Of a DNA stretch of 64,000 nt, positions 32,310 through 55,739 are shown one piece after another. The notes under the pieces are model-generated. The model worked only from the letters and a program-made list of their open reading frames with translations, ran no database searches and was not told where the DNA came from. The position numbers and the translations under genes were made by a program. How positions within the stretch are numbered: position 1 is the first letter of the stretch; each line of letters begins with the position of its first letter. The stretch lies in the NCBI RefSeq assembly GCF_054482525.1, contig NZ_CM137006.1; one strand, written 5' to 3'.

Positions 32310-33212
32310 TTATTGATAAACAAAAGTCACGCCAATAATCGATTGCACATTCCCTGCAGTCACCTGCCCTCCGGTACGTGCGTAATTTGCCGTTAATCCC
32401 AGACTTACCGCCGAAGTCCCTACTGCTCCTAACGATACCGTGTTATTCGCTGGAATAATCGTACCGTTGCGCGTCAACTGTACGCCGACGCCCTGCGCTG
32501 GTGAAAACGAGGCGGTATTGGTGAAAATCGAGTTGCCCGCATCTGCGGTTGTGCCGGAGAGGTAATACCCCAGGTTTTGGCTTTTCGCACAATAAACGGT
32601 AAGAGGAATTGGCACTGAACCAGGGTAGTCCGGCAGAGTAACGGTGACATCACGAGCAGAAACATCGCAGCCACCAGTGGGCACCACCACATCATTATTG
32701 GCGTAAATATTCCACACAAACTGAAAATCATCGCTGTTATAATTGTTGGTCTGTCGCAAAATAAGCACGGCAATTAATGAACCAGCTTTAATCGCCACCC
32801 CGCCCGCACTGCTCACAGGCGTCAAATAAAGCGCCACCGGCCACGGCTTATCCGTTCTCGAATTATAAACAACGCGCGGCGTTTCGCTGGTGGTCGGAAA
32901 TGGATAGCTACTGCCACTATATTTTACGGTCCCGGAAAAATTAGATAACACGACGCCGTAAGCCGAGCCTCGTTGCAGTGTGACATAGTCTGTAATGGTT
33001 TCCGGATAATCGTTATGGCAAAAGATTTGCGTCGAAAGATCCACGACCAGGTTTTGCCCCACATTCACGGCGGGCGCAAGGTTTACATAAACATTGGCGC
33101 TGCCACCGCCAATAGGGATAGCTGTACCATTGGCGGTTTTACAGGCGAATGACCAGGCATTTACCGACCAGCCCATCAGCAGTACAGCAAACAGGGTAAT
33201 AACTCGTTTCAT
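32310..33212 (-). CDS. fimH: type 1 fimbrial tip adhesin (mannose-binding)
   Basis: Track ORF to 33221; MKRVITLFAVLLMGWSVNAWSFACKTANGTAIPIGGGSANVYVNLAP... from ATG 33212 (300 aa). Confidence 0.93.
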   Translation of the reverse strand: MKRVITLFAVLLMGWSVNAWSFACKTANGTAIPIGGGSANVYVNLAPAVNVGQNLVVDLSTQIFCHNDYPETITDYVTLQRGSAYGVVLSNFSGTVKYSGSSYPFPTTSETPRVVYNSRTDKPWPVALYLTPVSSAGGVAIKAGSLIAVLILRQTNNYNSDDFQFVWNIYANNDVVVPTGGCDVSARDVTVTLPDYPGSVPIPLTVYCAKSQNLGYYLSGTTADAGNSIFTNTASFSPAQGVGVQLTRNGTIIPANNTVSLGAVGTSAVSLGLTANYARTGGQVTAGNVQSIIGVTFVYQ

Positions 33213-33231: not shown

Positions 33232-33735
33232 TCAGCTGTAGGTATAGGTGATGCTAATCACTGCCTGAATGGTTCCCTGAGTGGCTCCGCCATTTACTGT
33301 CAATGCTCTGACCTGTAACGGGAAGTGCGCTGATTGTGAGGAATCATCCACCTGAACTGTTTTGGTTGCGCCACTATTCAATGTGTTGCCACTGTCATCC
33401 TGTAGCTCTAACTGGATGTTTTGCGCGGTCCCCTGGTTTTTATAATATCCGGTACTGTCGGCTGCCCCGCTGAAGCTGGCAGTGACCCTCGACGTTCCCA
33501 CCGGACAATTAGTCAACTCAAGCGCAACATCATGCCAGGCCGATGCCGCCCCGGCAGACATCAGACTGAAAGAATAAAGATCGCCGAGATCTACCGTGGC
33601 ATTGGTGGTGGAAACCGTGCACGGTTTGGCGACGACCTTACCGTTCACCGTGATGGTGACATCGGCTGCCTGTATCGTCGCACTTGCGAGCGCCAACATT
33701 GCCGCCAATAAATACCCACGTTTGCGCCATTTCAT
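33232..33735 (-). CDS. fimG: type 1 fimbrial minor subunit
   Basis: Track ORF to 33741; MKWRKRGYLLAAMLALASATIQAADVTITVNGKVVAKPCTV... (167 aa). Confidence 0.9.
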   Translation of the reverse strand: MKWRKRGYLLAAMLALASATIQAADVTITVNGKVVAKPCTVSTTNATVDLGDLYSFSLMSAGAASAWHDVALELTNCPVGTSRVTASFSGAADSTGYYKNQGTAQNIQLELQDDSGNTLNSGATKTVQVDDSSQSAHFPLQVRALTVNGGATQGTIQAVISITYTYS

Positions 33736-33747
33736 GAGCATCTCCAG

Positions 33748-34278
33748 TTACTGATATTCAAGAGTGAAGGTAGCCGTGGCATTGATATGCCCCGCAGTGA
33801 CAGGCACCTGTGTCGCCATTAGCCGGGCGTAAAAATTCAGCGTATTTGGTTTACCCGGCGTCAGGGTCGTCCACGAAATCGCGGACGATGGGGCATTAAG
33901 GGGTATCTGATTTTGTTGCTCATTCAGAAGCTGTATTCCCAGTCCCGCAGCCGCTGACACCGTATTTTCAAGTGCAAGCAGGTTGGCATTGTGGCTATCT
34001 GCAACACCGGTAAACCCAACTTTTACGGCAGAAACGGCATTACCACAGGGTGACAGCAAAATACGAAATGGAACGACAGGAGTCGTCGCGCCAATGTTGT
34101 TAAATTGCTTCGCCGCGTTTTCCATCAGATCAACAGTAAAATTGGTTGATTCAGCGGCCACACTACAGCCGTTATCTCTGACATAGCCGCGGATAGTAAT
34201 CGTGCTATCCGCAGCCAAAGCGTGACTTACCGCCAGCCACAAAAAAGCGCACAGAAGATAAAAAGGTTTGTTTCTCAT
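33748..34278 (-). CDS. fimF: type 1 fimbrial minor subunit
   Basis: [40 protein letters not shown]... (176 aa). Confidence 0.9.
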
Positions 34279-34287
34279 CACGCCCCC

Positions 34288-36924
34288 TTAACGACATTCA
34301 GCTGATAGCTGGGTTAATAACTGCTGCTGACTCTCTGGTGGCAGTTGATAATTGGCGACACAGTGAGCATTTTCCTCTTCTCCCCATTTCACCTGAACTT
34401 TTCCCGCTAAAGGCATTCCGCTGAGGTAAACCTGACCATTATCCGCAACAATGCCGCTACTCTGGCTACTCTCTGATGTCACCATCGCCCCAAACGGCAG
34501 CGGCTTATTATTGTGGGTTAGCGTCATGAGCAGTTTTATCCCAACGCGCGCTTTAAACTCTGCTCGCACTATCGCCCCACGAGTGGGAACAACGTTAGCG
34601 ACCGCGTTATCTAAATCGACGTTATCAGCCAGGGTATTGGTATCCAGCGCTACTCTGTTTTCCCGATATTCAGTGGCATAAGGCAGCACGGCATAACCGC
34701 GCCAGTCGGTACGCACCCCCGTCTGGTTTTCGACTTTTGCATCTTTTGCGCCAGGCGCTTTAACAAGCACTACCGTATCGTTTAACGGCTGCCCCAGCGT
34801 TACGCCATTGGCATGAGCCAGTACCCCACCGCTGACTCCGTAATAGAGCTGCTTAATATCATCGCTATGGCTGTAACCGATGTTGGCATTGCCGTAACCA
34901 CCGCGATAATTCAGCGTGGCGTAGCCTGTACTTCCGCTATTACCATCACCTCCCCCGGCGTAACCGGTTTGCACGCTATAGCTGAGGTTGTTGTCTTCCA
35001 GCAACGTACCGTATACACCGGCCAGATTGGTCATCCGACCGTTGAGATCGTGTGACATGCTGTAACTGGCACTGGCATGTCGCCACTGAGATTTACTGTC
35101 AGAACGCAGCCAGTGGCTGAAAGGAATATTGACGTTAAGCGCTAACATCTGATCCCGTCCTTTTTGCCAGGCGTTTTTCGTCAGGCTATAGCTGAGCGTC
35201 CAGTTGATATCTTCGAATGCAGTATTTAAACCAGCCTGGAATTGCTCATCGACATTATTCGTTCCCCAATAAGTTTGATGGCTACCACTCAAATACAGTG
35301 TTGATGAGCGCCCGAGTTGCTGAGTAACGGTGAGCTGTAATTTCCCGCGTTTGTTATAAGCGAGGTTGTAATAGTCGGTGAATTTCGGCTTAACCTGAAT
35401 AACTCCGTCCTGTGTTTCGATGTTGTAGCCATTCATTCGACTGTATGTTGTATCAGCGAAATTAAAATATCCGCTGGTCGAATAACGGTAACCCACTAAC
35501 TGAATATTCGTGCCTGACTCATTGAGCGATTTGTTATAGAGAAAACGCACCGATTGTCCGTCATGCTGACTGTCATCGGGAAGTGTGGAATTAGCCTGCG
35601 TCATATCCACAGACAGAGCACCCAGTGCCCCCATGTTTTTCCCGATACCGAAATTAAAAGCACGATAACGATCCGCCAGTTGCGTTCCACCATATATTGT
35701 CCAGCCAGCCGGAAGGCCGTGGAGTAATGTACTCTGGAAAAAGCGGGGTTTTTCCTGTTGCGCATTTCCACTACGGTATTCTCCTGCCGTAATGGAATAA
35801 CGAGTATGCCCTTCACGTTGCAAAAGCGGGACTGACGAATAGGGTACGGTAAAAATCTGCGTGCTGCCGTCAGCCTCTTTGATCGTTACCTGCAAGTCAC
35901 CACTATTACCTGCGGCATAGATATCGTTGATGGTAAAAGGCCCCGGTGGCACCGTACTATTATAAATGTCATACCCATTTTGTTTAATAGTGACCTGTGC
36001 AGTACCACGAGCAATACCGTGGATCACCGGGGCAAATCCTCTTTGGCTATCGGGTAACATATTGTCATCTGAGGCCAATTGTGCGCCGCGAAAGTTAATA
36101 CCATCGAAAATATCGCCCTGAGTATAACCATCACCCAGCGTCAGCCGGGAACGTAACGGAATTATGTCTCGCTCAAGCCAGGTATTGATATGCTGCCATT
36201 TATTTTTGCTACCTGATGAACTGTCGCTACTGTTATAACTCCAGGTGGTATTGTCGCGTAAACGCCACGCACCAATATTTAACCCACTCTGTAGGTTTAA
36301 ATATGCATAATGGCTGTTACCCCCAATCCGATTCTGTACACTATTTCCGCTAAAATTATAATTGAGCAATCCGGCATTAATACCGGGATCCCATAACTCA
36401 GGAGGAATATAACCACGCGCGCGATTACTCATAAATGCCTGAGGGATCGTCAGGTTGAGTCGCTGCTGACCAACATCTAAATGCGCAGTAGCGTCATGGA
36501 TCATTGAGGTTAATGGCACGCAGGCATCATCCGCCAGCAGATTCATACCGGAGACAGAAGCCGTATTCAGCCCCATACCGGCAAGTTGCGCGCGTGTCAG
36601 GCAGGGAACAATCCCTTGTTCACTGTCGCCCGTATTAAATGTGACATCACGCGTTGCCATATAACCATTATTCAAATAGATATCGACACGATACGTCCCT
36701 GGCGGTAATTCTTGCCCATTCTCAAAACGCGATAAATCAGCCACAGCCTGGGGATCATCCGCTAAAAAACGCGGGTTAAAATAGAGTTCGGCAGATGACA
36801 AAGGTGCCTGTGCGGCAAAAGCACAAGCAACAAAGAACCGGACAAAAAAACCAGCCAAACGATGCTTACGAATATGCAAGCATTGTGTGTTTCGCTGGTA
36901 AAGTCTTAAATTCAGATATGACAT
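34288..36924 (-). CDS. fimD: type 1 fimbrial outer-membrane usher
   Basis: 878-aa ORF MSYLNLRLYQRNTQCLHIRKHRLAGFFVRFFVACAFAAQA...; usher family. Confidence 0.93.
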   Translation of the reverse strand: MSYLNLRLYQRNTQCLHIRKHRLAGFFVRFFVACAFAAQAPLSSAELYFNPRFLADDPQAVADLSRFENGQELPPGTYRVDIYLNNGYMATRDVTFNTGDSEQGIVPCLTRAQLAGMGLNTASVSGMNLLADDACVPLTSMIHDATAHLDVGQQRLNLTIPQAFMSNRARGYIPPELWDPGINAGLLNYNFSGNSVQNRIGGNSHYAYLNLQSGLNIGAWRLRDNTTWSYNSSDSSSGSKNKWQHINTWLERDIIPLRSRLTLGDGYTQGDIFDGINFRGAQLASDDNMLPDSQRGFAPVIHGIARGTAQVTIKQNGYDIYNSTVPPGPFTINDIYAAGNSGDLQVTIKEADGSTQIFTVPYSSVPLLQREGHTRYSITAGEYRSGNAQQEKPRFFQSTLLHGLPAGWTIYGGTQLADRYRAFNFGIGKNMGALGALSVDMTQANSTLPDDSQHDGQSVRFLYNKSLNESGTNIQLVGYRYSTSGYFNFADTTYSRMNGYNIETQDGVIQVKPKFTDYYNLAYNKRGKLQLTVTQQLGRSSTLYLSGSHQTYWGTNNVDEQFQAGLNTAFEDINWTLSYSLTKNAWQKGRDQMLALNVNIPFSHWLRSDSKSQWRHASASYSMSHDLNGRMTNLAGVYGTLLEDNNLSYSVQTGYAGGGDGNSGSTGYATLNYRGGYGNANIGYSHSDDIKQLYYGVSGGVLAHANGVTLGQPLNDTVVLVKAPGAKDAKVENQTGVRTDWRGYAVLPYATEYRENRVALDTNTLADNVDLDNAVANVVPTRGAIVRAEFKARVGIKLLMTLTHNNKPLPFGAMVTSESSQSSGIVADNGQVYLSGMPLAGKVQVKWGEEENAHCVANYQLPPESQQQLLTQLSAECR

Positions 36925-36990
36925 TATTCCTCCGGTTTAAAATCACCCGGCAGTCAATTCTTTTTATTCAGGCGAAAAATTCCCCCTGCG

Positions 36991-37716
36991 TTATTCCATT
37001 ACGCCCGTCATTTTGGGGGTAAGTGCGCCATAATCATTTATTGTTCGGTAAGTAATATTGCTTCCTGCATCAGAAGGCAATTTAACCGTGCTTTCGCCCA
37101 TTGGAGGCACCAATGCATTTTCAAGAACCCGGGTTCCGGCATTCAACTCTGTTACCGTCAGGTAATAGGGTGTCGGGTTAATCAGCGTCAGAGAATTCGC
37201 GCTACGACGAAATCTTAATTTTTCTGCGGCCTGATCGGGTGGCAACGCTAATTTAGCCGGGCGATAGTACAGTTTAATGCGGCTGATAATTGCGAGCTGT
37301 AGCGTATTCTCAGTCAATTTTGATTTATCCATTGACGGAATCGCTTTAACGTTCATCCAGAATAAACTTTCCCGATCCTGTGGCAATTGGTTATTTGTTG
37401 CATCAAGAATACGTAAGGTATTCTCTTTTTTTCCCTTCATCGCAAACAGAGGTGGCGTCACGATAAAACGACCATCCTTTACACCATCGGCATTTTCCAC
37501 CCATGATTGAATTAAATAGGTGCTATTTTCATCATTATTTGTCACGGCAAGTTGCACTTGTTTTTGCCCTGCCGGATAAATTACGCGGGTCGCACCTAAG
37601 GCCACTCCCGCTTCAGCGCGTCCGGCAACCATCATTGCCATGAACATCAGGATACCTGCCAGCAAGCAGAATGTTATTTCCTGCGATTTCCTTACATTGA
37701 CGTTTTTATTACTCAC
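36991..37716 (-). CDS. fimC: type 1 fimbrial periplasmic chaperone
   Basis: 241-aa ORF MSNKNVNVRKSQEITFCLLAGILMFMAMMVAGRAEAGVALGATRVIYPAGQKQ... Confidence 0.93.
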   Translation of the reverse strand: MSNKNVNVRKSQEITFCLLAGILMFMAMMVAGRAEAGVALGATRVIYPAGQKQVQLAVTNNDENSTYLIQSWVENADGVKDGRFIVTPPLFAMKGKKENTLRILDATNNQLPQDRESLFWMNVKAIPSMDKSKLTENTLQLAIISRIKLYYRPAKLALPPDQAAEKLRFRRSANSLTLINPTPYYLTVTELNAGTRVLENALVPPMGESTVKLPSDAGSNITYRTINDYGALTPKMTGVME

Positions 37717-37752
37717 TGTCCTGTTCCTGTTATCACATTATCTGCTGAACAA

Positions 37753-38292
37753 TTACTGATAGGTTAAAGAGAACCAGGCCTGGGCATTGGCGATGCCGCC
37801 AGTAACCCGACGCCCGGTAGCACGATATTTGGCGATGAAATGTAGCGAAGTAGAGCCTGAGTAAAGCCGTTTCCAGTTTGCAGGAGGACGATTAATCGGT
37901 ACGAGGTTTCCTTCATCATCAAACAACGCTACGCCAATATTGGCGGCTATCCCTGGCCCCTCTCCCACGGAAAGCACATCCGGATTTTTACCATCCGCGA
38001 CACCGTGAAACGCCACACCCACACGTTCACTCACCACCGTGCTACATTCCCGTAAATGAATAACAAAAGGCACCGGTGCGCTATCTTCCCCTACCGCATG
38101 AAACCGGTTACTGCTGATTTGCCCCATATTGACCGTCATTTGTTTATCACCGGCTTCAATCCGGCAAGTTTCCGCAATAATGACGCCCTGAAATTGCATA
38201 TTTCCGCCGGGCAGCGTGGTATTCCATTTATTTCCGGCCAGAGCAAACATTGGCAGTAACGACGCTAATAGAAATAATCTCTTCCTTTTCAT
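37753..38292 (-). CDS. fimI: fimbrin-like protein FimI
   Basis: Track ORF to 38424; [30 protein letters not shown]... from ATG 38292 (179 aa). Confidence 0.85.
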
Positions 38293-38356
38293 CGTTATTT
38301 TTATCGCACAAGGGTGGGCATCCCTGCCCGTAATGACGTCCCTGAACCTGGGTAGG

Positions 38357-38905
38357 TTATTGATACTGAACCTTGAAGGTCGCATCCGCATTAGCAGCAC
38401 CCGGGGTTGCAGCAGCGGTTGCAAAATAACGCGCCTGGAACGGAATGGTGTTAGTACCGTTATTCAGGGTTGTTTCTGCACTAAATGTCGCACCGTCCAG
38501 CGCCAGCGCAGCACCGGTTCTGTCCAGAATTTGCACACCAACGTTTGTTGCGCTACCTGCAGCAGAACTCTGCAGAGCCAGTACATCAGTATGCGTAGCA
38601 TCAATTGCCGTACCTAAGAAGGCAACAGCGGCTTTTGTGGCAACAGTGGTATCGCAATCATTCAGCTGAATGTTAAAACCAACAGCAGAGCTGGTTGCTC
38701 CAGCCTGCTTCAGGCTAGCGGTACGAACCTGTCCTAACTGAACGGTTTGATCAACAGAGCCTGCATCAACTGCGCAAGCGGCATTAACAACTTCCCCTTT
38801 AAAGTGAACGGTCCCACCATTTACCGTCGTAGTATCAGCCAGAGCCGCTGCGGAACTGAGGGACAGAGCCGACAAAACAACGATTGCCAGAGTTTTAATT
38901 TTCAT
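38357..38905 (-). CDS. fimA: type 1 fimbrial major subunit
   Basis: Track ORF to 39064 reads through the switch; true start [23 protein letters not shown] at 38905 (182 aa). Confidence 0.93.
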
Positions 38906-39023
38906 GCTGCTTTCCTTTAAAAAACTATTTCTAAATCGACATGGGCAGTCGTTCTGTACACTTTGTTTTGTCAACGAGTTTGACTGCCAACACTGCACAG
39001 TTTTCCCCCAAAAGATGAAACAT

Positions 39024-39337
39024 TTGGGGCCATTTTGACTCATAGAGGAAAGCATCGCGCACAAACTTTTTCAGTTTATTTGTTGGCTTGATATTCTACC
39101 GTTATCTTTATTTATAGATTTTTATATTGCATGAGGTGGTTTTTGGAGAGAAGAATGAGGAAGTTGCTTCGAGACACAGAAACGTTAGCTTTACATTTAG
39201 CGGAGGTGATGTGAAATTAATTTACAAGAGAAATAATTTACATATCAAACAGTTAGATGCTTTTTGTCGTTTTTTAATATTTTTATGCTTGAGAAAAAAT
39301 ACGTAACTTATTTATGATATGGACAGTTTGGCCCCAA
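39024..39337. promoter_or_regulatory. fimS: fimS invertible phase-variation switch (314 bp) bounded by 9-bp inverted repeats
   Basis: TTGGGGCCA at 39024-39032 and its reverse complement TGGCCCCAA at 39329-39337; spacing is exactly 314 bp, the known size of the fim switch. Confidence 0.85.
39289..39319 (+). promoter_or_regulatory. fimA sigma70 promoter inside fimS (-35 TTGAGA, 18-bp spacer, -10 TATGATA), here pointing away from fimA
   Basis: ttgaga at 39289-39294 and tatgata at 39313-39319 on the plus strand, i.e. directed toward fimE; promoter hexamers are as I recall them from the literature. Confidence 0.65.
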
Positions 39338-39384
39338 TTGTCTTGTATTTATTTGTTTTTTAACTTTATTATCAATGAGTTAAA

Positions 39385-39981
39385 TCAAACCTCTTCTCTT
39401 TTTAATTTTTCGTTTATGAGATTATTTCTTTCCCATAATCCGGCAAAACGAGCAGCATTACTGGCGGTATAACGCACAGTATGGCGAATATTTCGATGCC
39501 CGAGATAATCCTGAATTAAACGGGTATCGGCACCACGCTCCGCCAGTTCATAACCACAAGCATGCCTTAACATATGAGGATGAGTCTGCGTTACGGTTCC
39601 AGCTTCAATACCGGCATCGCGAATAATGCGATAGGCCTGCTGGCGAGAAAGCCGACTCCCGCGGCGAGAAATAAATATAGCGTCGGTCCGGTCAGCGCCT
39701 TTCCAGTTAGCACGTTCCTGGGTCCAGCGTTCCACGGCTTCACGCTCATCAAAACGTAACGGGTGAACGGTAGAAAATCCGTTCTTCAGTCGGCGAATAT
39801 TTATTCGACCTTCATTAAGGTCAAGGTCCTGATAATGCAGATCAAGCAGTTCACTAATACGCATCCCATGCCGATATGCCAACAGAATAAGACAATAATC
39901 TCTGGCTCCCGTTGCCCCGTAACAAACCGCCTGCATCATGGCCTGAACTTCTTTACCGGTAAGATAACGACGTTTACTCAC
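39385..39981 (-). CDS. fimE: tyrosine recombinase FimE (ON-to-OFF switching)
   Basis: 198-aa ORF MSKRRYLTGKEVQAMMQAVCYGATGARDYCLILLAYRHGMRISELLDLHYQD...HMLRHACGYELAERG...LGHRNIRHTVRYT. Confidence 0.93.
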   Translation of the reverse strand: MSKRRYLTGKEVQAMMQAVCYGATGARDYCLILLAYRHGMRISELLDLHYQDLDLNEGRINIRRLKNGFSTVHPLRFDEREAVERWTQERANWKGADRTDAIFISRRGSRLSRQQAYRIIRDAGIEAGTVTQTHPHMLRHACGYELAERGADTRLIQDYLGHRNIRHTVRYTASNAARFAGLWERNNLINEKLKREEV

Positions 39982-40459
39982 AATAGTAGTACTCCTAACT
40001 GAGATATATTTGAATGAATACCTATAGGAAACCTCAATCGGTCAAAATTAGCCCAATAGATAAAAAGATAACCACACACGAAGTGATGTGGCTATCAGTC
40101 AATTACATTAAATATCATACAAAAATAAAATATCACTGATGTGACAACATCTATTTTCATTGATTTGATTCAATATAACAATAGATTGCAGTGGATTAAC
40201 TTCCCAGTTGCTTAAAAAATAAAGAAAAAAGTATGAAAACAGGAGAATTTAAGTGATGTGTAAATTTATGAATGATTTTGTTTATTTATTTTGAAGAACA
40301 CAAACCATTGTATTTTGTATGGATATGGTTAACTTAATGTTTATTATGATAATTAAGAATCACACTTACAATAACATCAATTAATAAATGGTTAATCATT
40401 TTTGATATATCGTAAGAATAATGTGTTTTTTAACACCATCCCTGGTATCCCATCTATCT

Positions 40460-41062
40460 CTATAAAACAGCGTGACGCTGTCTCCCTCTAGCTCTATCCC
40501 AGATGCCGTAAAAACGCCCTGCATTGCTGGCGGTATACCAGACTGTATGACGAATATTGCGATGCCCAAGATAATCCTGGATAAGTCGCGTATCTATTCC
40601 CATATTCGCCAAAGCAAAACCACACGAATGGCGTAACATGTGCGGATGAATCTCCAGTGATAACCCAGCATTACCACCAGAAGTCGAGATAATATGGTAA
40701 AACTGTTGCCGAGAAAGCGGATTCCCCTTACGTGATAAAAATACCCACTCGCTCTCAGCATGCGGATACGAAGTACGGATACTCAACCAGTTTTTTAAAG
40801 CCTGAACTTCTTTGTTCAATAGCGGGTGCGTTGTTGAAAAGCCTTTTTTTAATCGATGGATATATATACACTTTGCCTTAAGATCAATATCCGAAATCCT
40901 CAATCGACAAATTTCACTCGCCCGGAAACCATGAATAAAACAAAGCAAAGTCAGACAATAATTACGTGCTGCATGAGGCCCGGTATTTGCTGCTTTAAGG
41001 AGTGACTCGATTTCACTATGGGTCAGGAAGTTCCTTTTTTTGTTATCAGCCTTATTCTTCAT
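40460..41062 (-). CDS. fimB: tyrosine recombinase FimB (bidirectional switching)
   Basis: Track ORF to 41092; MKNKADNKKRNFLTHSEIESLLKAANTGPHAARNYCLTLL... from ATG 41062 (200 aa). Confidence 0.93.
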   Translation of the reverse strand: MKNKADNKKRNFLTHSEIESLLKAANTGPHAARNYCLTLLCFIHGFRASEICRLRISDIDLKAKCIYIHRLKKGFSTTHPLLNKEVQALKNWLSIRTSYPHAESEWVFLSRKGNPLSRQQFYHIISTSGGNAGLSLEIHPHMLRHSCGFALANMGIDTRLIQDYLGHRNIRHTVWYTASNAGRFYGIWDRARGRQRHAVL

Positions 41063-46271: not shown

Positions 46272-48005
46272 ATGGAAATCATGTTACCAAAAAACACCTT
46301 ATATGACAGAGAGCAAAATGTCTTTTTTGAAAAGGTTACGGCCTTAATTGGCGAAAATGGTGCTGGTAAGTCCTCGATTTTACAATCCGTATTTATTAAC
46401 TGTTTAACAAAAAAATATCTACCAGAAACAAAGGTTGTTTGTTTTTCTTCTGGACAAAATGAGAAATACTCAACGTACTTCTCTGATTATCTTTCTCATG
46501 AAAGGCAAGCAAATAGAGGTCTTAACTTAGATTGTTGTTATTACGATAAATCATGGTCAAAGTTACTAATATTCATATCCACAATTTGTAAATCAAATGG
46601 TCTTGTTAGAAATTTTTTATGTGAGAAAGGCTATATTGATGTATCAGATGATAAAAATGATGATATATCAAGCAAGCTTACATTGACGGTCCGAGTAAAT
46701 TCGGCTTACGTTAATCGAGTAAAAATGGCATTAGCACAAGAAGAACAAGGTATTGAAAATACTTTAAGGTATTCAGCTTATCATAGGACTTTAGAAAGTT
46801 TCATTAATAATATTGTTAATGCTGATTATGATTTCGAGTCTCCACTTGAAGCTCAAGAGATCTTGCTAACTCATTCAAATTTTTTCAATCCATCATTTGA
46901 GGAAGCAGAAGATTCCTTTTTTGATCCTATCATAACATTTTTCACTCAAGCAGCAGATAATGATTACTTTATAATAAAACCATCATTACAGCTAGAGTTT
47001 AAAAATAATATCGAACTGAATGATATTAGTGATGGGGAATATCAAGTACTCTTTTTATACTCTCTGCTTGATATTTTTGATAGTCCTAATACTTTATTCT
47101 TATTAGATGAGATAGATTCCCATTTACATTACAAGAATATTGAGCTCTTATGGCATCGACTACATAGTATTAATGGTTATGCGATAACAACCACCCATCT
47201 ATTAGACTCAATTACAGCTACTGATAATGATTTTAAAAACTTAAAGATTGTTGATAAAGGAAAAATAAAAGAAGATGATAAAATAAAAACTATAATAGAA
47301 CGTTTATCTGTCTTGACAAGAATATCAGACGTACAGTTCGAAGTGTGTCGTAAACTAGAAAACATAGTATTGATGGATGATTATAATGATTGGACTATTT
47401 TTTATGCCTTAGCAAAGAAAAAAGGACTTGATGTATCAAAGTTAGATGGCCTCCATGCAATAAAACAGTCCTCTGGTTACGATAATTTAAATCAAGAGTT
47501 CGCAAAACCAAAAATAGAGTGGATTAATTCGCTTTCAAATGTAAATACTGATAAGAAAGTCAAAAAAATATTCATGATCTGCGACAAAGATGAGGCTCCA
47601 ATTACCTATCAGAAAGATGGAGTTCAAGTCAATGGAAGTGAATATTCAAAACATATAGCGAAGTTAGAAAATAAAAACAAAAATAAAATATATCTCCTTG
47701 CTTGGAAAAGAAGAGAAATAAAAAACTACTTATTATCTTATACGGCATTGTCTCATCATGGATTTATCGGGCAAATAAACAATGGTGATCTGCCGGCTAA
47801 CAGTTATTTAAAAGAAAACAATCCTGGAGATAATTCAGCAATTAGCCGGCTTAATGTAAAACATTGCATCACAAAAATAATTGATTCTGATGGTATAGGA
47901 TTAGATATCTCAAAACTTTACTCATATATAGAACTTATACCACCTGCTGAGATCAGTGAAGATATAGTGAACATGTACAATTTTTTGGTGGAGAAATTAA
48001 AATGA
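46272..48005 (+). CDS. ABC/SMC-type ATPase (AAA_21/OLD-like) with a C-terminal ~240-aa putative nuclease-like (TOPRIM/DUF4435/RloB-like) domain
   Basis: 577-aa ORF in very AT-rich DNA; Walker A GENGAGKSS (aa 27-35), Q-loop FSSGQ, signature-like DISDGEYQVL, Walker B/H-loop LFLLDEIDSHLH; C-terminal region with acidic clusters (VLMDDYND, FMICDKDE) and LAWKRREIKNYLL motif; start M1 vs M4 uncertain. Confidence 0.8.
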   Translation: MEIMLPKNTLYDREQNVFFEKVTALIGENGAGKSSILQSVFINCLTKKYLPETKVVCFSSGQNEKYSTYFSDYLSHERQANRGLNLDCCYYDKSWSKLLIFISTICKSNGLVRNFLCEKGYIDVSDDKNDDISSKLTLTVRVNSAYVNRVKMALAQEEQGIENTLRYSAYHRTLESFINNIVNADYDFESPLEAQEILLTHSNFFNPSFEEAEDSFFDPIITFFTQAADNDYFIIKPSLQLEFKNNIELNDISDGEYQVLFLYSLLDIFDSPNTLFLLDEIDSHLHYKNIELLWHRLHSINGYAITTTHLLDSITATDNDFKNLKIVDKGKIKEDDKIKTIIERLSVLTRISDVQFEVCRKLENIVLMDDYNDWTIFYALAKKKGLDVSKLDGLHAIKQSSGYDNLNQEFAKPKIEWINSLSNVNTDKKVKKIFMICDKDEAPITYQKDGVQVNGSEYSKHIAKLENKNKNKIYLLAWKRREIKNYLLSYTALSHHGFIGQINNGDLPANSYLKENNPGDNSAISRLNVKHCITKIIDSDGIGLDISKLYSYIELIPPAEISEDIVNMYNFLVEKLK

Positions 48006-49909
48006 ACACCTCTTTATTTGAAGATCTACTTACACTAATCAAGAAAAAGAGTTCGATAAGAAATACAGAGCAAGCAGTAGAGTTAATTTCATTATTTATT
48101 TTTTTACATTATATAAAATTATATCTTTATGAAAATGATAAAAGATTTTCAGATATAAAAAACATATCAAGCAACAACATTAATGAAATTAAATATTATT
48201 ACCAGCAACTATATGAAAGTTTTATTTTCTCGATAGATATAAAAAATATAAACCACGACATGCTTGAAAACCTCAGGAGTAAGATAGGTTTTTTAATTAA
48301 TAACATCAATGACCATGAAATAATTAAATATATAGATTATTCTATTTCGCAGATACATTCACTTACAGAATTCCATCAATATGCAAATTCTTATCAATCT
48401 TTAATTCTTAGGATGGTTAATGAATCGGGTCGTTCAGGTGAATATGTTACTCCATCTGCTTTAGTTCAGCTCATGGTTGAAATGTTATCACCTACAGATG
48501 GCACATCAATCTACGACCCAGCATGTGGAACTGGGGGTTTATTAATAGAGTCAGCACGATATATTAAAGGCAACAGTTTAAACAAAAACTTAAATTTAAA
48601 TTATTCCCTTATTGGTAATGACACATCATCATTTGCCTGTCTAATCTCAATTGTTAACCTTTTAATCAATAAAGAATTTAATTTTGAAATAATACTAAAA
48701 GATAGCTTAGATATAAATTATAAGAATAAAAAATATGACTTTGTTTTAACTAACCCACCATTTGGGAAAAAGAGCTGTTGGGATAATATTCATATTGACA
48801 CACATTATAAAGGACCTAATCTAGACTATTACTTCCTGGAGCATGTTATTGACTCTCTCGCTGTTAATGGCAAAGCAGCCATGATATTACCAGAGCGTTT
48901 TTTATATGATGTGAGTGAAGAGTGCATCACTCTTAAAGATAAGATCTTCCAAAATTATAATTTAGATTGTATTTTATCTATACCGTCAGGTGCATTGCTT
49001 CCTTACACTGCAGTAAAATTATGTATTCTTTTTATAAGTAATTCTGGCCCAACAGATAGAATATTTTTCTACAATTTAAATAATGGTGAAAAATACTCAC
49101 GTACAAATATTATAAAATTCGATGATTTTATAGATTTTTTAGAGTCAGCAAAAAATAGAACAATAACTGAACACTCCTGGATTATCAATATTAGTGATAC
49201 ACCTTCATCTTATAACTTACTCTTAAAAGATAAAGAGCGAAACTCATATGAGTTTCTTAGTGATTCTATAGTTAACATTGAACAGACAATACGTAATAAT
49301 GAATTATTACTAACAGAGTTGTCTTTATTAAGAGAAAAAATAGCAATCTTAGAGTCAACAATAAAAAATCATTCGCATGAATATGAATTTGAGAGACTTA
49401 AAGTTGGAAATATTGCAATAGTAAAATCCGGAAATTTATTACAAAAAAACAGGCTGTTACCCACTGGACCAATTCCTGTATACGGTGGAAATGGAGTTAT
49501 TGGATATAATAATGAAGCAATGGAAAATGGTGAAAATATTATTATTGGTAAGGTCGGAGCTCTTTGCGGAAACGTTCGGTATGTTCAAGGTGATATTTGG
49601 GTGACAAATAACTCATTAATTATTAAGAATTATTCACCAAATAAAGTTTTAACACCCTACCTTGCAAAATTATTATCTACTTTAAACTTAAGAAGGCTCG
49701 CCGTTGGTACCGCTCAGCAATATTTAACCACGACACAAATAAAAAATGTAGAAGTTAGTATTCCACCTTTAACGACCCAGTATAAATTAAATATTTGGCT
49801 TGATGAGTTAGATAATACGCTTGAACAATATAATAATCTCATTGAAAAAATAATGAATGATAAGCGAGAACTTAAAGAGAATTTGTATAAAGGTCTTTTA
49901 ATAGAATAG
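48002..49909 (+). CDS. N6-adenine DNA methyltransferase (HsdM-like, gamma class) fused to a single HsdS-type target-recognition domain (M-S fusion)
   Basis: 635-aa ORF overlapping the upstream ATPase gene by 4 nt (ATGA); motif X/I GEYVTPSALVQLMVEMLSPTDGTSIYDPACGTGGLL, motif IV FVLTNPPFGKK, then a TRD with HsdS hallmarks (GNIAIVKSGN...IPVYGGNGVIGY...IPPLTTQYKLNIWLDELDNTLEQ). Confidence 0.85.
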   Translation: MNTSLFEDLLTLIKKKSSIRNTEQAVELISLFIFLHYIKLYLYENDKRFSDIKNISSNNINEIKYYYQQLYESFIFSIDIKNINHDMLENLRSKIGFLINNINDHEIIKYIDYSISQIHSLTEFHQYANSYQSLILRMVNESGRSGEYVTPSALVQLMVEMLSPTDGTSIYDPACGTGGLLIESARYIKGNSLNKNLNLNYSLIGNDTSSFACLISIVNLLINKEFNFEIILKDSLDINYKNKKYDFVLTNPPFGKKSCWDNIHIDTHYKGPNLDYYFLEHVIDSLAVNGKAAMILPERFLYDVSEECITLKDKIFQNYNLDCILSIPSGALLPYTAVKLCILFISNSGPTDRIFFYNLNNGEKYSRTNIIKFDDFIDFLESAKNRTITEHSWIINISDTPSSYNLLLKDKERNSYEFLSDSIVNIEQTIRNNELLLTELSLLREKIAILESTIKNHSHEYEFERLKVGNIAIVKSGNLLQKNRLLPTGPIPVYGGNGVIGYNNEAMENGENIIIGKVGALCGNVRYVQGDIWVTNNSLIIKNYSPNKVLTPYLAKLLSTLNLRRLAVGTAQQYLTTTQIKNVEVSIPPLTTQYKLNIWLDELDNTLEQYNNLIEKIMNDKRELKENLYKGLLIE

Positions 49910-49915
49910 ATCACA

Positions 49916-49946
49916 GTAGCAGGGTGTCCACAATACACCCTGCTAC
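49916..49946. terminator. hairpin between the convergent M-S methyltransferase gene and hsdR (putative bidirectional terminator)
   Basis: gtagcagggtgt-ccacaat-acaccctgctac: 12-bp perfect inverted repeat with 7-nt loop, 7 nt after the methyltransferase stop. Confidence 0.5.
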
Positions 49947-49989
49947 TGGTTGCAAGTAAGTTGCAATATCTGTACTGCTGAAGCTACGA

Positions 49990-52900
49990 TTAATAATGCT
50001 CCTCAATATACCCATACGCCTTCTGGAACAACTCTTTATCTTTCCCTAGTCCAAACTGGGCCAAGGTCAGCAAAAGCGCCTTTTGGATTTCGCGCGGGCC
50101 ACTGTTAGAATTTTGCCAGCCATCAAAGCGGGTAGCTTTCACAATTTTATCAATTTGCTCTACAACATCACCGATTAACTTAGGGGTAGTTTCCGGACGT
50201 GTTTCGAGGAAAAGCTTAGTCAACGCCTGTTTATTATCAGCTTCAGTTACTGGACGCTCGCCCGTTTCGCGCTCGGCTTGAACGGTATCTTTCGCTGCAT
50301 CCAACAGGCCTTTCAACCAGTCAATGGCCTTGATAACACCAGCTTCATAGTCCTGACGCAGTTTTTCAAGGCGCTCGCCCAATGCCACAAATTTAGGATC
50401 ATGACTGCCGCGCAAACGTCCCATAAGATCAATCTCCAGGCGTTTAGCACGTTGTTCCTGCTCTTTAGCGGTCAGGGTAAAAATAGCGTGCTCGTCCATG
50501 ACCAACTCGTCAATATCATCGCGAATACGATTGATATCAGTATGCTCATGGATCATCTTGATTGTTTCGGGGCCAAGGGCAGCCCAAACAAGCGCACCTG
50601 TCTGCCCTACCGGACGCACCGATTCATAAATTTGCGCCAGCCATTTATAGTCCTGACGATAAGGGGTCAAAAAAGGGTCTGGGTTGATAGCTGACCATAA
50701 CTTGGATAACACACCAAAGCTGGCAGCGAATTCATCGCGCTTCTCGTTGGTCGGCAGGCATTCCTGCGCGGCCATAATACCTTCAAAACCAGCTATGGAC
50801 CGATCCACACCAGGGAAGAAGGACAAACATTTATTCAGTTGTAACGGCAATAGCTCTTTAAATGCCTCAATTCCCTCTACAACTCCTTCAATTTCTTCAG
50901 GGTTATAGGCCAGAGCGGTACGCAGATTTTCGAAAACGCCGAGGTAGTCGATAATTAATCCCATGTCCTTGCGTACAGTATCGGTTTCGTACAGCCGGTT
51001 AGTTCGGCACATGGCCTGCAGAAGGGTATGATCGCGTAGAGGCTTATCGAGGTACATGCAGTAGCAAATCGGGGCATCAAAGCCCGTAAGCAGCTTGGCG
51101 GTTACGATAATAAGCTGTAATGGATATTCAGGATCTTTAAAGCACTCAATTAGATCCTTTTGCACCTGCTCTTCGGCATCGATGTGCTGCCAGCGTTCAA
51201 AATCGACTTGTTTGACAGGCAGCTCCAACTCATCATGCCATTTAAGCCAATCCTTGTTGAGCTTGTCTTTTTTGCCACCCTCTTCAACTTTAATCGGAGC
51301 CTGGTCAACGTTCATAACCACTTCAACTGCATCAAAACCAAGCTTTTCACCGAGCAAATAATACATCTGCACACAGGCTTCGCGATCGTATACCACAACC
51401 ATGCCTTTCATCTTTTTCGGCATAACATGGTTGGTAAAATGCTCAGCAATATCATTACTCACCGCAGCCATACGTCTGGGAGATTTCAGCATAATAGCCA
51501 GCTTGCCGGCACGTCTGGACAATGCTGCTTTTTCTTCTTCATCCAGGTTGTTTTCGGTAGCCAGTTGCTCGAACTCTTCATTGATGGCATCACGATCCAC
51601 TCGGAGTTCAGCCAGCCGAGGTTCGAACTTCACCGGGTTAGTTGCGCCATCCCGGATCGACTGCTTATAGCTATAGCGGCTCATATAGCGACCTGGATCT
51701 TCTTCGGCACCGAACAATTTGAACGTATTACGATCAATGCCAGAAATCGGAGTACCAGTCAGGCCATAGAAGTGGGCATTGGGCAACGCCCAGCGCATTT
51801 TCTCGCCTAATCCCCCTTCCTGTGTACGGTGAGCTTCGTCAACCAACACAATGATATTGTCCCGGTTGTTCAGGCCATTAGGGTTGCTATCGTCAATTTC
51901 GATATCTTTAAATTTAAAGATGGTGGTGATTAAAATGCCACGGCTGTCTTGTTCAATGTATTCACCCAACTTTTTGCAGCTTTGCACTTTAATCAGATTC
52001 TTAACGTCGGCTCCACCAAAGGTCTCGTTAATTTGGCTGTCCAGATCTCGCCGGTCCACAACGATAAGTACCGTCGGGTTTTTTAACGCATTATCGGCAC
52101 GTAGCATTTTGGCGGCGTAAAGCATCAACAAGGATTTACCCGATCCCTGGAAATGCCAAATAAGACCTTTTTTTGGATAGCCTCTGCGAACACGCTCAAC
52201 AATTTGTTTTGCAGCTTCAAATTGCGGATAACGCGGCAAGATTTTAACGCGTTTAGGTGGAGTATTTTTGCCCGTTTTGACGGTTGAAAATAATGCAAAA
52301 GATTCCAGTAACTGCAATAAGGTTTGCGGATTTAACAAACTCTCACAGCTATTGAGTACCGATGCCAGACCCGGCAAAATTTCATCACGAAGCTCAGTAT
52401 TATGCCAGGGTCCCCAGTCTTTAACTCGGGCATTAATGGCTCCATAGGCAAAGGTTTTACCTTCGCTGGCAAAGCACAGCAAGTTAGGTACAAAGAAAGA
52501 TTCAACATTTTTCCAGTAGTACTTTTTGCCACCCATGAAATCGGCAGCACCGTCTTGCCAGGTCACGCTGGGGCGTGTTGCGGTTTTAACTTCGCCTACT
52601 ACCAGTGGCATGCCGTTCACATAAAGAACAATATCAAAATAGACTTCAGTGGCCGCGATATAGTGAACCTGCTGCGCCACTACAAAGTGGTTGTTCTCTA
52701 TATTGTCAAAATCAATCAGATTGATGGTGATATGGTCGCCATTCTTACCAAAAGGCAAGGTTTTGTCGGCCATCAACCATTCCTGGAAGTTTTCATTGGC
52801 CTTTACCAAGCCGGTATGGCGGGCTTCTAAAACCACTCCTCGCAGTTTGTAAATGACCTCATCGGCATAGTCAGGCTGTCTGCCGATATCAGGGTTTAAC

Positions 52901-53052
52901 GAACAAAGCGCGTCTTTTAGCCACTCATCAACGAATATATCCTGCGCTTGTTTAGGCAGGTTTTCACCGTGGCAGTAAGTCCACTTGACTCCGCTTAAAC
53001 CTTTTAAACGGTCGATAATTCCATTTTCTGTGACGGTTTGTTCGTTAAACAT
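49990..53052 (-). CDS. hsdR: Type I restriction enzyme R subunit (DEAD/DEAH helicase-nuclease)
   Basis: Track ORF 49990..53070 begins at TTG; ATG six codons in (MFNEQTVTENGIIDRL...) has AAGGAAAT RBS; Walker A HFQGSGKSLLM, DEAH box VLVDEAHRTQ; ~1020 aa. Confidence 0.9.
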   Translation of the reverse strand: MFNEQTVTENGIIDRLKGLSGVKWTYCHGENLPKQAQDIFVDEWLKDALCSLNPDIGRQPDYADEVIYKLRGVVLEARHTGLVKANENFQEWLMADKTLPFGKNGDHITINLIDFDNIENNHFVVAQQVHYIAATEVYFDIVLYVNGMPLVVGEVKTATRPSVTWQDGAADFMGGKKYYWKNVESFFVPNLLCFASEGKTFAYGAINARVKDWGPWHNTELRDEILPGLASVLNSCESLLNPQTLLQLLESFALFSTVKTGKNTPPKRVKILPRYPQFEAAKQIVERVRRGYPKKGLIWHFQGSGKSLLMLYAAKMLRADNALKNPTVLIVVDRRDLDSQINETFGGADVKNLIKVQSCKKLGEYIEQDSRGILITTIFKFKDIEIDDSNPNGLNNRDNIIVLVDEAHRTQEGGLGEKMRWALPNAHFYGLTGTPISGIDRNTFKLFGAEEDPGRYMSRYSYKQSIRDGATNPVKFEPRLAELRVDRDAINEEFEQLATENNLDEEEKAALSRRAGKLAIMLKSPRRMAAVSNDIAEHFTNHVMPKKMKGMVVVYDREACVQMYYLLGEKLGFDAVEVVMNVDQAPIKVEEGGKKDKLNKDWLKWHDELELPVKQVDFERWQHIDAEEQVQKDLIECFKDPEYPLQLIIVTAKLLTGFDAPICYCMYLDKPLRDHTLLQAMCRTNRLYETDTVRKDMGLIIDYLGVFENLRTALAYNPEEIEGVVEGIEAFKELLPLQLNKCLSFFPGVDRSIAGFEGIMAAQECLPTNEKRDEFAASFGVLSKLWSAINPDPFLTPYRQDYKWLAQIYESVRPVGQTGALVWAALGPETIKMIHEHTDINRIRDDIDELVMDEHAIFTLTAKEQEQRAKRLEIDLMGRLRGSHDPKFVALGERLEKLRQDYEAGVIKAIDWLKGLLDAAKDTVQAERETGERPVTEADNKQALTKLFLETRPETTPKLIGDVVEQIDKIVKATRFDGWQNSNSGPREIQKALLLTLAQFGLGKDKELFQKAYGYIEEHY

Positions 53053-53053
53053 T

Positions 53054-54241
53054 TTATATTTCCTTATCAATCATAGCTTGGCGCAGTTGAATAATTTTCC
53101 CCAAGGATTCATTGTGCCTATAAATATTCTCATACGAACACTTAAACGTATTAATGATTGATGCTTGAATATCGAAGGGAGGAATAGGAATTTGAATTTT
53201 TAAAAAGTTATCTTTATTTATTTTCTTCATACTTCCGCTAGTTCCAGCAGCAATACCTTGAATAGCTCGACGGCCATATGGAGACATCAGATAGTACATT
53301 AAAAACTCTTTTTTAATAAATTTTTCGTCAACAGCCAATCTCCACATCGTGTCTGGGAAAATCGTATTCCCATTGCCAGTCGATCCTTTATATTTTCCAA
53401 CTAAACCAACCAACTCCGCTGTATTAGAACGAGAGATTAACAAATCACCATCATTGCATGTTTTTCCTTTTAAAAAATGATCTTCTGTAATATTTTTTAA
53501 AGTAGTTTCTCTGAATCCTGATTTCGACAAACTATTTAGGTTCAGGACATAGTACCCAGTCCCGACTGCGGTTTCAACAGGAGAATATCCCCCTTCTGGA
53601 GAATCAATTAAAACATCTTTAATAGAACCAAAAGTCCATCCAACCGGAAGAGGAACACATTTATTCTCCCTCGAATCAAAGTAGTTATCAAAAGTCCGTA
53701 GACCAATAGCATATAATAATCTTTTAGCTGCTTTGAGAGCACTTAAATATAGAAGTTCTTTCTTTGCTAACGAATCAAAGATTATTAATGACGAGTATTG
53801 CTGTTCAATGCTCGGTATATTAACTTCTAGTTTATTTAAATCACTCCATTTTATTCGCGATGATAGCGAGCCGGCGGAATTTGCAATCACCTTTTCCATA
53901 AAAGAGGTTGATTGCATCAAGTGGGGTAAGTACCCATCCAATAAGTAGTTGTTTTTCCTTGGTTTAATTACCATTGCATCAGCAGAGCAAATACCATTAA
54001 TAGGGCTCACCGACACCCTTTTTAAATATGTATTTCGTCTACTAAAAATTATTTCGCCACACTTTACCTTAAAGGCTTGTGTTTTCAATTCAACGTCAGC
54101 CCCCCAATCATGAACATAAAAATAACCAGATTTCAAATGTTCCAACCCAATAAAATGCTTAGCATCGTCGCTTGTTGGGGAGATTCTAACCATAACCTGT
54201 TCAGCAAGATCACCAAATGTAACATTTCTTTTATTATTCAT
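53054..54241 (-). CDS. hsdS: Type I restriction-modification specificity subunit (two target-recognition domains)
   Basis: Track ORF 53054..54292; probable start MNNKRNVTFGDLAEQ at 54241 overlapping the hsdM stop; two TRD halves with a central conserved region; the stop lies within ~15 nt of the hsdR start. Confidence 0.85.
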   Translation of the reverse strand: MNNKRNVTFGDLAEQVMVRISPTSDDAKHFIGLEHLKSGYFYVHDWGADVELKTQAFKVKCGEIIFSRRNTYLKRVSVSPINGICSADAMVIKPRKNNYLLDGYLPHLMQSTSFMEKVIANSAGSLSSRIKWSDLNKLEVNIPSIEQQYSSLIIFDSLAKKELLYLSALKAAKRLLYAIGLRTFDNYFDSRENKCVPLPVGWTFGSIKDVLIDSPEGGYSPVETAVGTGYYVLNLNSLSKSGFRETTLKNITEDHFLKGKTCNDGDLLISRSNTAELVGLVGKYKGSTGNGNTIFPDTMWRLAVDEKFIKKEFLMYYLMSPYGRRAIQGIAAGTSGSMKKINKDNFLKIQIPIPPFDIQASIINTFKCSYENIYRHNESLGKIIQLRQAMIDKEI

Positions 54242-55739
54242 TATTATATTTCTCTCTATCAATTTCATAGCCAATGCTATCCAAGCTATCAAACAATACC
54301 TTGATATTTCTTTTGAGTTTTACGCTACTGACTTTCCATGATTCGATAGCATGCTGAATATCATTCATTTTGACATTGTTTTGAGATTTCACATAAAGTG
54401 AAATCGATAAATTATAGAAATTTTCTTTAATAGCTTCGATATCCACTAAAGCGGTTATGTCGTTTTTTTTCTCCGGATTAAAATAAGCCTCGCATAATAC
54501 TTCCAAATCATCATCAGATAGGCGACTATGGGCACGTTCACGGGTAACATACTCAACCCCGTTGATAAACAAAACCTTATTTTTGCGTTCAGCAGGTTTA
54601 TTGCAATTAAGCACCACCAAGCAAGATTCCATCGGCGAGTTGTAAAACAGATTTGGTCCCAAACCAATCACCGCTTCGATTATGTCGGATTCAATCACCT
54701 GTTTACGAATGGCTTGTTCAGAATCACGGAACAGTACACCATGCGGCCAGAGCATGGCAGCACGACCGGTGTCGGGTTTTAAACTTTTGATTATATGGGT
54801 ATAAAACGCATAATCAGCACAACCTTGTGGAGGCACGCCATAGAGATTACGCCCATAGGGATCGGCTGCAAACTTGTCACGATTCCATTTCTTAATGGAG
54901 TATGGTGGGTTAGCAAAAATCACATCAAACTGCTTGAGCCGATCGTTTTCAATAAACTTTGGCTCAGCCAAAGTATCACCACGCAGCACATCAAACTCTT
55001 CAATATCATGCAGGAACATATTCATACGAGCAATAGCGGAAGTCAGCAGGTTCACTTCCTGACCATAAAGGTGCACAGAGCGCCACTCTTCTCCTCTTGC
55101 ACGAAGATCCATCACTGCATTTAGCAACATCCCTCCAGTGCCACACGTTGGATCATAGGCTGTTTCACCCGGTTTTAAGCCCATAATGCGCGTCATTAAA
55201 TGCACGACTGTTCGGTTGGTGTAGAACTCTGCTGCCGTATGACCGGAATCATCAGCGAACTTTTTAATCAGGTATTCGTAGGCCTCACCAAGATCATCCT
55301 GAGCGACAGATTTAATACCGAGCGGTATTTTACTGAAATGTTCAATCAGATCAGCCAGCAGATGATCGGGCAGGCGCTCTTTATTGGTCCACTGCGCATC
55401 ACCGAAGACGCCATGTAAACGCGGATTATTGGCTTCAATTAGTCGAAGCGCATTCTGGATCGCTTCACCAATGTTTTTACTGGTATTGCGTACCTTTTCC
55501 CAACTGGCTTCAGAGGGAATATTGAAACGGTGAAACATCGGCATGGCGGCATATTCAGCATCACCTTCATGGAGTTCCAGCGCTTCGTTATATTCTTCCA
55601 GATAGACATCTGACAGGCGTTTGTAAAACAGCAACGGGAAGATATACTGCTTGTAGTCTGATGCGTCAATTTGGCCACGAAGAAATTCGGCGGCTCCCCA
55701 GAGCAGCTCTTCCAGCTTTTTATTACTCATAGTACTCAT
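54234..55739 (-). CDS. hsdM: Type I restriction-modification N6-adenine methyltransferase subunit
   Basis: 501-aa ORF; HsdM N-domain (LEELLWGAAEFLRGQIDASDYKQYIFPLLFYKRLSD), motif I DPTCGTGGML, motif IV NPPYS; motif X reads AEFYTNRT rather than the usual GEFYTPR. Confidence 0.9.
   Translation of the reverse strand: MSTMSNKKLEELLWGAAEFLRGQIDASDYKQYIFPLLFYKRLSDVYLEEYNEALELHEGDAEYAAMPMFHRFNIPSEASWEKVRNTSKNIGEAIQNALRLIEANNPRLHGVFGDAQWTNKERLPDHLLADLIEHFSKIPLGIKSVAQDDLGEAYEYLIKKFADDSGHTAAEFYTNRTVVHLMTRIMGLKPGETAYDPTCGTGGMLLNAVMDLRARGEEWRSVHLYGQEVNLLTSAIARMNMFLHDIEEFDVLRGDTLAEPKFIENDRLKQFDVIFANPPYSIKKWNRDKFAADPYGRNLYGVPPQGCADYAFYTHIIKSLKPDTGRAAMLWPHGVLFRDSEQAIRKQVIESDIIEAVIGLGPNLFYNSPMESCLVVLNCNKPAERKNKVLFINGVEYVTRERAHSRLSDDDLEVLCEAYFNPEKKNDITALVDIEAIKENFYNLSISLYVKSQNNVKMNDIQHAIESWKVSSVKLKRNIKVLFDSLDSIGYEIDREKYNNE

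Follow-up and report, generated by a model that had tools for sequence, protein, structure and literature searches.

Type 1 fimbriae of Escherichia coli carry at their tip the adhesin FimH, a target of anti-adhesive drugs (mannosides), vaccines and antibodies whose alleles serve in strain typing. Substitutions of one residue away from its pocket change tissue tropism and virulence. The fimH allele analyzed here lies in a stretch of DNA of 64,000 nucleotides, which is referred to as a whole as the window. In an earlier note on this DNA, two residues of the lectin domain had been flagged alike as variants to compare, namely Ala27 and Val66 in the numbering of the mature protein. The locus thus raises the question which of the two residues is informative about the strain, how that residue came to be there, and what it would do to the adhesin.

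The fimH gene and its surroundings

The region is fimH, and the gene is intact in an intact fim operon (Table 1). The gene is located on the minus strand, about which the earlier note was silent; a plus-strand reading of 32310-33212 was rejected, as that frame is full of stops. Translation of the minus-strand open reading frame (window 33212..32310) yielded a precursor of 300 amino acids, MKRVITLF...GVTFVYQ*, and fimH is annotated at identical coordinates in near-identical genomes. Both peptides quoted in the note, ...VNLAPAVNVGQ... and ...GSAYGVVLSNFSG..., were found in this translation, and Ala27 and Val66 are indeed present when the residues are numbered after removal of the signal peptide of 21 residues. 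The precursor matched the Pfam families PF09160 (FimH_man-bind; 241 bits, E 4e-72, all 145 profile positions) and PF00419 (Fimbrial; 33 bits), that is, an N-terminal lectin domain and a C-terminal pilin domain are arranged behind a Sec signal peptide. The mature chains in solved FimH begin at precursor F22, and 277 of the 279 residues of the mature window protein are identical to solved 1QUN and to mannose-bound 1KLF. The residues of the FimH mannose pocket (F1, N46, D47, D54, Q133, N135 and D140) and of the tyrosine gate (Y48, I52 and Y137), as well as the cysteines of the disulfide C3-C44, are all unaltered in the window protein, and residue 66 does not belong to the pocket.

The gene order was found to be fimB-fimE-fimS-fimA-I-C-D-F-G-H-gntP with fimH as the final gene of fimAICDFGH, and the sole difference between this cluster and that of strain SCU-102 is nucleotide 260 of fimH. 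The invertible element fimS comprises 314 bp, is colinear with the MG1655 reference and has the 9-bp inverted repeats TTGGGGCCA/TGGCCCCAA at its ends. A promoter-like TTGAGA-18-TATGAT within fimS, probably the fimA promoter, is directed away from the minus-strand gene fimA, and the assembly would accordingly show fimS in the phase-OFF orientation. In related genomes RefSeq represents fimG by a 147-aa 'fimbrial protein' that begins 60 nt further downstream than the 167-aa product of K-12 fimG; as the window retains the longer open reading frame intact, the difference is one of start-site annotation and involves no sequence change.

Two further parts of the window were compared with the related genomes. 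The pentapeptide-repeat gene, which has internal repeats of about 196 nt with 89% identity, lacks 45 nt (15 aa, three pentapeptide units) with respect to 19KM1776, matches SCU-102 in length and carries a K506T substitution at 11708 that is private with respect to both. The defence-type island adjoining nanCMS encodes an AAA ATPase with an N6 DNA methylase, type I restriction-modification genes (R, S and two M), a restriction endonuclease, an AAA protein of 1,171 aa and an HNH endonuclease, and it also contains a TIR-domain gene that is frameshifted and has internal stops. Its hsdS/hsdM part is identical to 19KM1776 and PCN033 and diverges from SCU-102 from 53055 on (about 90% identity further along). 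The SNPs that are private with respect to both nearest complete genomes number only three, all of them nonsynonymous: K506T (11708), FimH G66V (32953) and Y125H (48374), the last being in the N6 DNA methylase. The SNP at 59640 is synonymous and was detected with respect to 19KM1776 only.

Table 1. Location of fimH, its coding segments and neighbouring features in the window; the fim genes other than fimH were placed by the annotation of 19KM1776, with which the window is colinear beginning at 11673.
Feature	Position	Strand	Remarks
Pentapeptide-repeat gene	~10192-12591		
fimH CDS	32310..33212	(-)	300 codons + TAA; type 1 fimbrial D-mannose-specific adhesin
Pilin domain, PF00419	32313..32672	(-)	precursor residues 181-300; protein same as K-12
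Lectin (mannose-binding) domain, PF09160	32709..33143	(-)	precursor residues 24-168
Codons 65-70 (GVVLSN), 'alpha-switch'	32940..32957	(-)	within bulge-helix segment 60-72
Codon 66	32952..32954	(-)	GTC, Val; from GGC (Gly) by G>T at gene nt 260 (window 32953)
Codon 27	33069..33071	(-)	GCC, Ala; in 'swing' segment (residues 23-32, window 33054-33083)
Signal peptide codons	33150..33212	(-)	21 residues, MKRVITLFAVLLMGWSVNAWS; same as K-12
Remaining fim cluster	33232..41062	(-)	
fimG	33232-33735	(-)	
fimF	33748-34278	(-)	
fimD	34288-36924	(-)	
fimC	36991-37716	(-)	
fimI	37753-38292	(-)	
fimA	38357-38905	(-)	
fimS switch	39024-39337		inverted repeats located
Promoter-like site in fimS	39289-39318	(+)	TTGAGA-18-TATGAT
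fimE	39385-39981	(-)	
fimB	40460-41062	(-)	
Defence-type island	46272-64000		

Positions 27 and 66 compared with K-12 and with published variants

The window protein is the E. coli consensus FimH (A27 form, WP_000832227.1) with the single substitution G66V. The comparison with K-12, for which the note had called, separated the two proteins at both positions: fimH of MG1655 (NC_000913.3, b4320, NP_418740.1) differs from the window gene by 15 nt, 13 of which are silent, and V27 and G66 of K-12 are the only amino-acid differences. The view of position 27 as a well-known FimH polymorphism agrees with the literature, in which this residue is a polymorphic and positively selected site (PMC5302871, PMC3554634) that modulates the tense/relaxed equilibrium (PMC5302871) and is located in the swing segment, residues 23-32 (PMC5084802). 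Among 5,426 complete E. coli genomes, the codon-27 30-mer with GCC was detected in 3,987 and that with GTC in 934, whereby these seed counts need exact 28-mers and miss alleles with further nearby polymorphism. A27 is the majority and consensus state and tells nothing special about the window strain; it was also found in all 22 EHEC FimH sequences of Bouckaert et al. (PMC1618777). The use of A27 as a pathotype marker was rejected since it is the majority state, and Dreux et al. also argue against it (PMC3554634). With regard to the opposite residue, the high-affinity FimH A27V/V163A was attenuated in the mouse bladder (PMC5302871), and therefore high-affinity FimH is not always advantageous. 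The equal flagging of both residues could thus be kept only for V66, which is informative, being rare and recent, whereas A27 is ordinary; the emphasis moves from A27, the common form, to V66, and it is K-12 that is the variant at position 27.

That position 66 is variable had been stated in the note as well, and the site is a published hot spot (PMC3554634, PMC10117834). Dreux et al. list G66A/C/S among the FimH hot-spot mutations (PMC3554634). According to the passages on this site in PMC10117834, which cite Weissman 2007 and Chen 2009, the hot spot comprises changes to R, A, S and C and is positively selected in uropathogenic strains, and G66S and G66C moderately raise mannose binding while catch-bond behaviour is kept. 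In the same study an adhesion-evolution experiment selected for G66C (G87C of the precursor), and of all the mutations in that study this one was the most widespread in natural genomes (PMC10117834). Furthermore, E. coli Nissle with G66R showed an about 4.1-fold higher adhesion (PMC13275912), G66D was reported as a rare substitution in one EHEC strain (PMC1618777), and G66C and G66S were found in Crohn's-associated isolates (PMC5443141). G66V, G87V or Gly66Val in FimH was not found in the full-text literature searched.

Origin and recurrence of V66

The nucleotide sequence of the window fimH matched none of the complete RefSeq E. coli genomes. In PCN033 (pig ExPEC), SCU-102 (human rectal swab) and 19KM1776 (dog rectal isolate), nucleotide 260 of the gene is G as compared to T in the window, with no other difference over 6,903 nt, and the G66 parent haplotype is thus present unchanged in three genomes. 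Over longer distances, the window differs from SCU-102 by three SNPs in 45,555 nt, including fimH nt 260, and from 19KM1776 over 64 kb at 32953, 48374 and 59640 and by the 45-nt repeat-number difference with adjoining mismatches, which falls in the pentapeptide-repeat gene. In seed searches of the 5,426 complete genomes, G66 (GGC) on the N70 background was detected in 4,569 and V66 (GTC) in five, four of them on the N70 background (D4 from dog, AH62 and AH65 from chicken, and W619 from pig) and one on the S70 background (85.0412, a human urine isolate). At nucleotide 255, only five bases from the mutation, the window has C and every other V66 gene examined has T. Given this C255 marker and the parent haplotype in three genomes, V66 arose by mutation, not by import, through a very recent single G>T transversion within the window strain's own lineage.

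With regard to hosts, the V66 carriers and nearest relatives are mostly from dog, chicken and pig, with only five complete-genome carriers, and a skew of V66 towards animal-associated E. coli is possible. Of the V66 carriers, the two chicken strains share one haplotype, which also has A202V, and the dog strain also has Q269K.

Two other origins of the T at nucleotide 260 were weighed. Acquisition of V66 by homologous recombination from a V66-carrying E. coli would be in line with the known recombination of fimH and with the presence of V66 on many backgrounds, but such an import would have to explain why the window keeps the C255 of its own lineage when all other V66 genes examined have T255, and why PCN033, SCU-102 and 19KM1776 show no other difference across 6.9 kb. 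Among the V66 genes examined, none was seen with a C255/T260 donor allele and a mosaic boundary. Import was rejected on the basis of the lineage's own C255 and the identical flanks, and its probability is close to negligible. Alternatively, the strain could truly possess the consensus FimH and the T could stem from faulty sequencing or assembly. However, this codon change recurs in many independent assemblies on other backgrounds, the window has other private SNPs with respect to its relatives, as a genuinely distinct isolate would, and it would be coincidental for a consensus-level error to fall right on a known hot spot; this outweighs the facts that G>T is typical of oxidative-damage artefacts, that the difference from three otherwise identical genomes concerns a single base and that the exact nucleotide allele is absent from the complete RefSeq genomes. 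An error is therefore considered highly improbable, and a recent mutation in the lineage of the strain remains the preferred explanation.

The same amino acid change was found repeatedly outside this lineage (Table 2). Among the ten matches listed for the A27/V66 protein, none had the window haplotype and 11-17 silent differences were counted. The 15 V66 genes examined represented 12 nucleotide haplotypes that are 3-18 nt apart, and within about 160 nt around the site eight different local backgrounds could be told apart among V66 genes. Moreover, each of the six residues that can replace G66 in a single step occurs on this A27 protein background, V being among the rarest of them.

Table 2. 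Public contigs with the exact FimH protein, counted for the hot-spot test on the A27 consensus background unless V27 is given; the counts are swollen by sampling and clonality and do not represent independent events.
FimH form	Contigs
G66 (parent)	at least 1000
G66S	at least 1000
G66C	400
G66R	209
G66D	44
G66V	31
G66A	28
K-12 form (V27/G66)	at least 1000
V27/V66	5
G15V	3
G73V	1
G116V	1
G8V, G14V, G16V, G31V, G61V, G65V, G79V, G117V, G123V	0 each

As the lectin-domain glycines examined all have GGN codons, the same second-position G>T is open at every control site. Nevertheless, G>V at the 12 other lectin-domain glycines was found in a total of five contigs as compared to 31 contigs at G66. With only the ten distinct V66 haplotypes entered and every control contig taken as an independent event, the binomial P for the concentration at site 66 was 1.5e-8. 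Purifying selection at the control glycines, rather than positive selection at position 66, could give the same contrast. As in the hot-spot variants of Sokurenko and co-workers, the change in the window is a single recent one on a conserved FimH background; its position has been hit repeatedly and independently on unrelated backgrounds and, by the published segment definitions, is located outside the pocket in the region governing the transition from low to high affinity. The occurrences of V66, which appear to be many, independent, individually rare and at the tips of lineages, fit the picture of short-lived adaptive mutations drawn for FimH hot spots (PMC3554634). From this pattern we infer that G66V is a short-lived 'pathoadaptive' tip mutation and not an old lineage marker. 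The counts offer a small and clean example of convergent evolution at one particular site of a core gene.

Proposed effect of G66V and relation to known FimH proteins

In low-affinity FimH the pilin domain clamps the lectin domain, whereas in the high-affinity form, reached via tensile force or ligand, the domains are apart, and natural variants outside the pocket shift this pre-existing two-state equilibrium (PMC5302871, PMC8064603). Residues 65-70 constitute the alpha-switch in the bulge-helix segment 60-72 (PMC5084802; see PMC8064603). At low affinity the alpha-switch adopts a 3-10 helix with three state-dependent backbone hydrogen bonds, and at high affinity an alpha helix with six of them (PMC5084802). 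Following this, we propose that valine in place of the flexible Gly66 would restrict the alpha-switch segment and that the restricted switch would, in turn, bias the pre-existing equilibrium in favour of high affinity. Binding to mannosylated receptors would then be expected to become stronger and less shear-dependent, as reported for other site-66 substitutions. Since every single-step replacement of G66 recurs, the loss of glycine itself is the simplest reading, and it would be the loss of its backbone freedom, and not the particular side chain gained, that favours the ordered high-affinity form. Valine has a beta-branched side chain and forms helices poorly, less readily than Ser, Cys, Arg and Ala, and therefore G66V need not behave like G66S, G66C or G66R. 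Taken all together, we consider it probable that the window carries an intact fimH with a recent de novo G66V of the pathoadaptive type, in which restriction of the alpha-switch shifts the adhesin towards its high-affinity state. Both the direction of the functional effect and its size are inferred here, as is the view that selection and not mere tolerance is behind the recurrence.

The recurrence could also be explained if G66V were neutral or slightly deleterious and came back since the permissive site 66 tolerates any side chain, with no appreciable effect on adhesion. This would be in accordance with the presence of all six single-step substitutions, as expected of an unconstrained site, with the low frequency of V, A and D each, and with the fact that V66 is present in only five of the 5,426 complete genomes. 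A permissive site is, however, difficult to reconcile with the published functional effects of S, C, R and A at position 66, with the experimental selection of G66C for adhesion and with the location of residue 66 in a segment that changes its secondary structure between the two states. Additionally, 4,569 genomes with the N70 background have kept glycine, and therefore site 66 is not drifting freely; a neutral change thus seems rather unlikely. It may also be asked whether Gly66 acts as a conformational 'latch', the loss of which to any residue is selected, with G66V as an undescribed member of this series. In that case the phenotype of G66V could differ in kind from that of the polar replacements, as a beta-branched hydrophobic residue could favour another tense/relaxed point or non-specific surface adhesion. 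We regard this as distinctly unlikely and retain the reading of G66V as a recent substitution of the pathoadaptive type that would shift FimH towards high affinity.

G66V adds one more uncharacterised allele to a well-known class, and the knowledge of FimH is unchanged by it; recording the recent and recurrent V66 at hot spot 66 shows the specialist which allele to test.

Comparison with known FimH proteins places the allele as follows. The consensus FimH WP_000832227.1 of PCN033, SCU-102, 19KM1776 and TUM14771 is identical in 299 of 300 residues and has Gly at mature position 66 where the window has Val; in PCN033, SCU-102 and 19KM1776 the nucleotides and the surrounding 6.9 kb are likewise identical save nt 260. 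FimH of K-12 MG1655 shares 298 of 300 residues with the window protein, including signal peptide, pocket and pilin domain, as well as the operon position beside gntP, and differs by V27 (GTC; the minority state) and G66. The solved structures 1QUN, 1KLF and 5MTS, whose mature sequence is as in K-12, differ from the window at positions 27 and 66 only. With FimH of UTI89 (A27/A62/V163) the window protein has A27 and V163 in common, and the principle that residues away from the pocket set the tense/relaxed balance (PMC5302871) is shared, whereas it has S62 (as K-12), N70, S78 and the change at position 66. The positively selected sites analyzed in that study of uropathogenic E. coli by the Hultgren group were 27, 62 and 163, with position 66 lying outside its scope; A62S was the low-affinity variant (PMC5302871), and since the window protein has S62, an affinity-raising change on its A27/S62/V163 background is plausible. 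The closest counterparts of the allele are the published variants G66S/C/R/A/D, which concern the same residue, need only one nucleotide change in the GGC codon, mostly in the consensus background, are located outside the pocket and were reported as hot-spot or pathoadaptive (PMC3554634, PMC10117834, PMC13275912, PMC1618777, PMC5443141). From these G66V differs by its valine and, on the same background, by a frequency 7 to more than 30 times below that of S, C or R.
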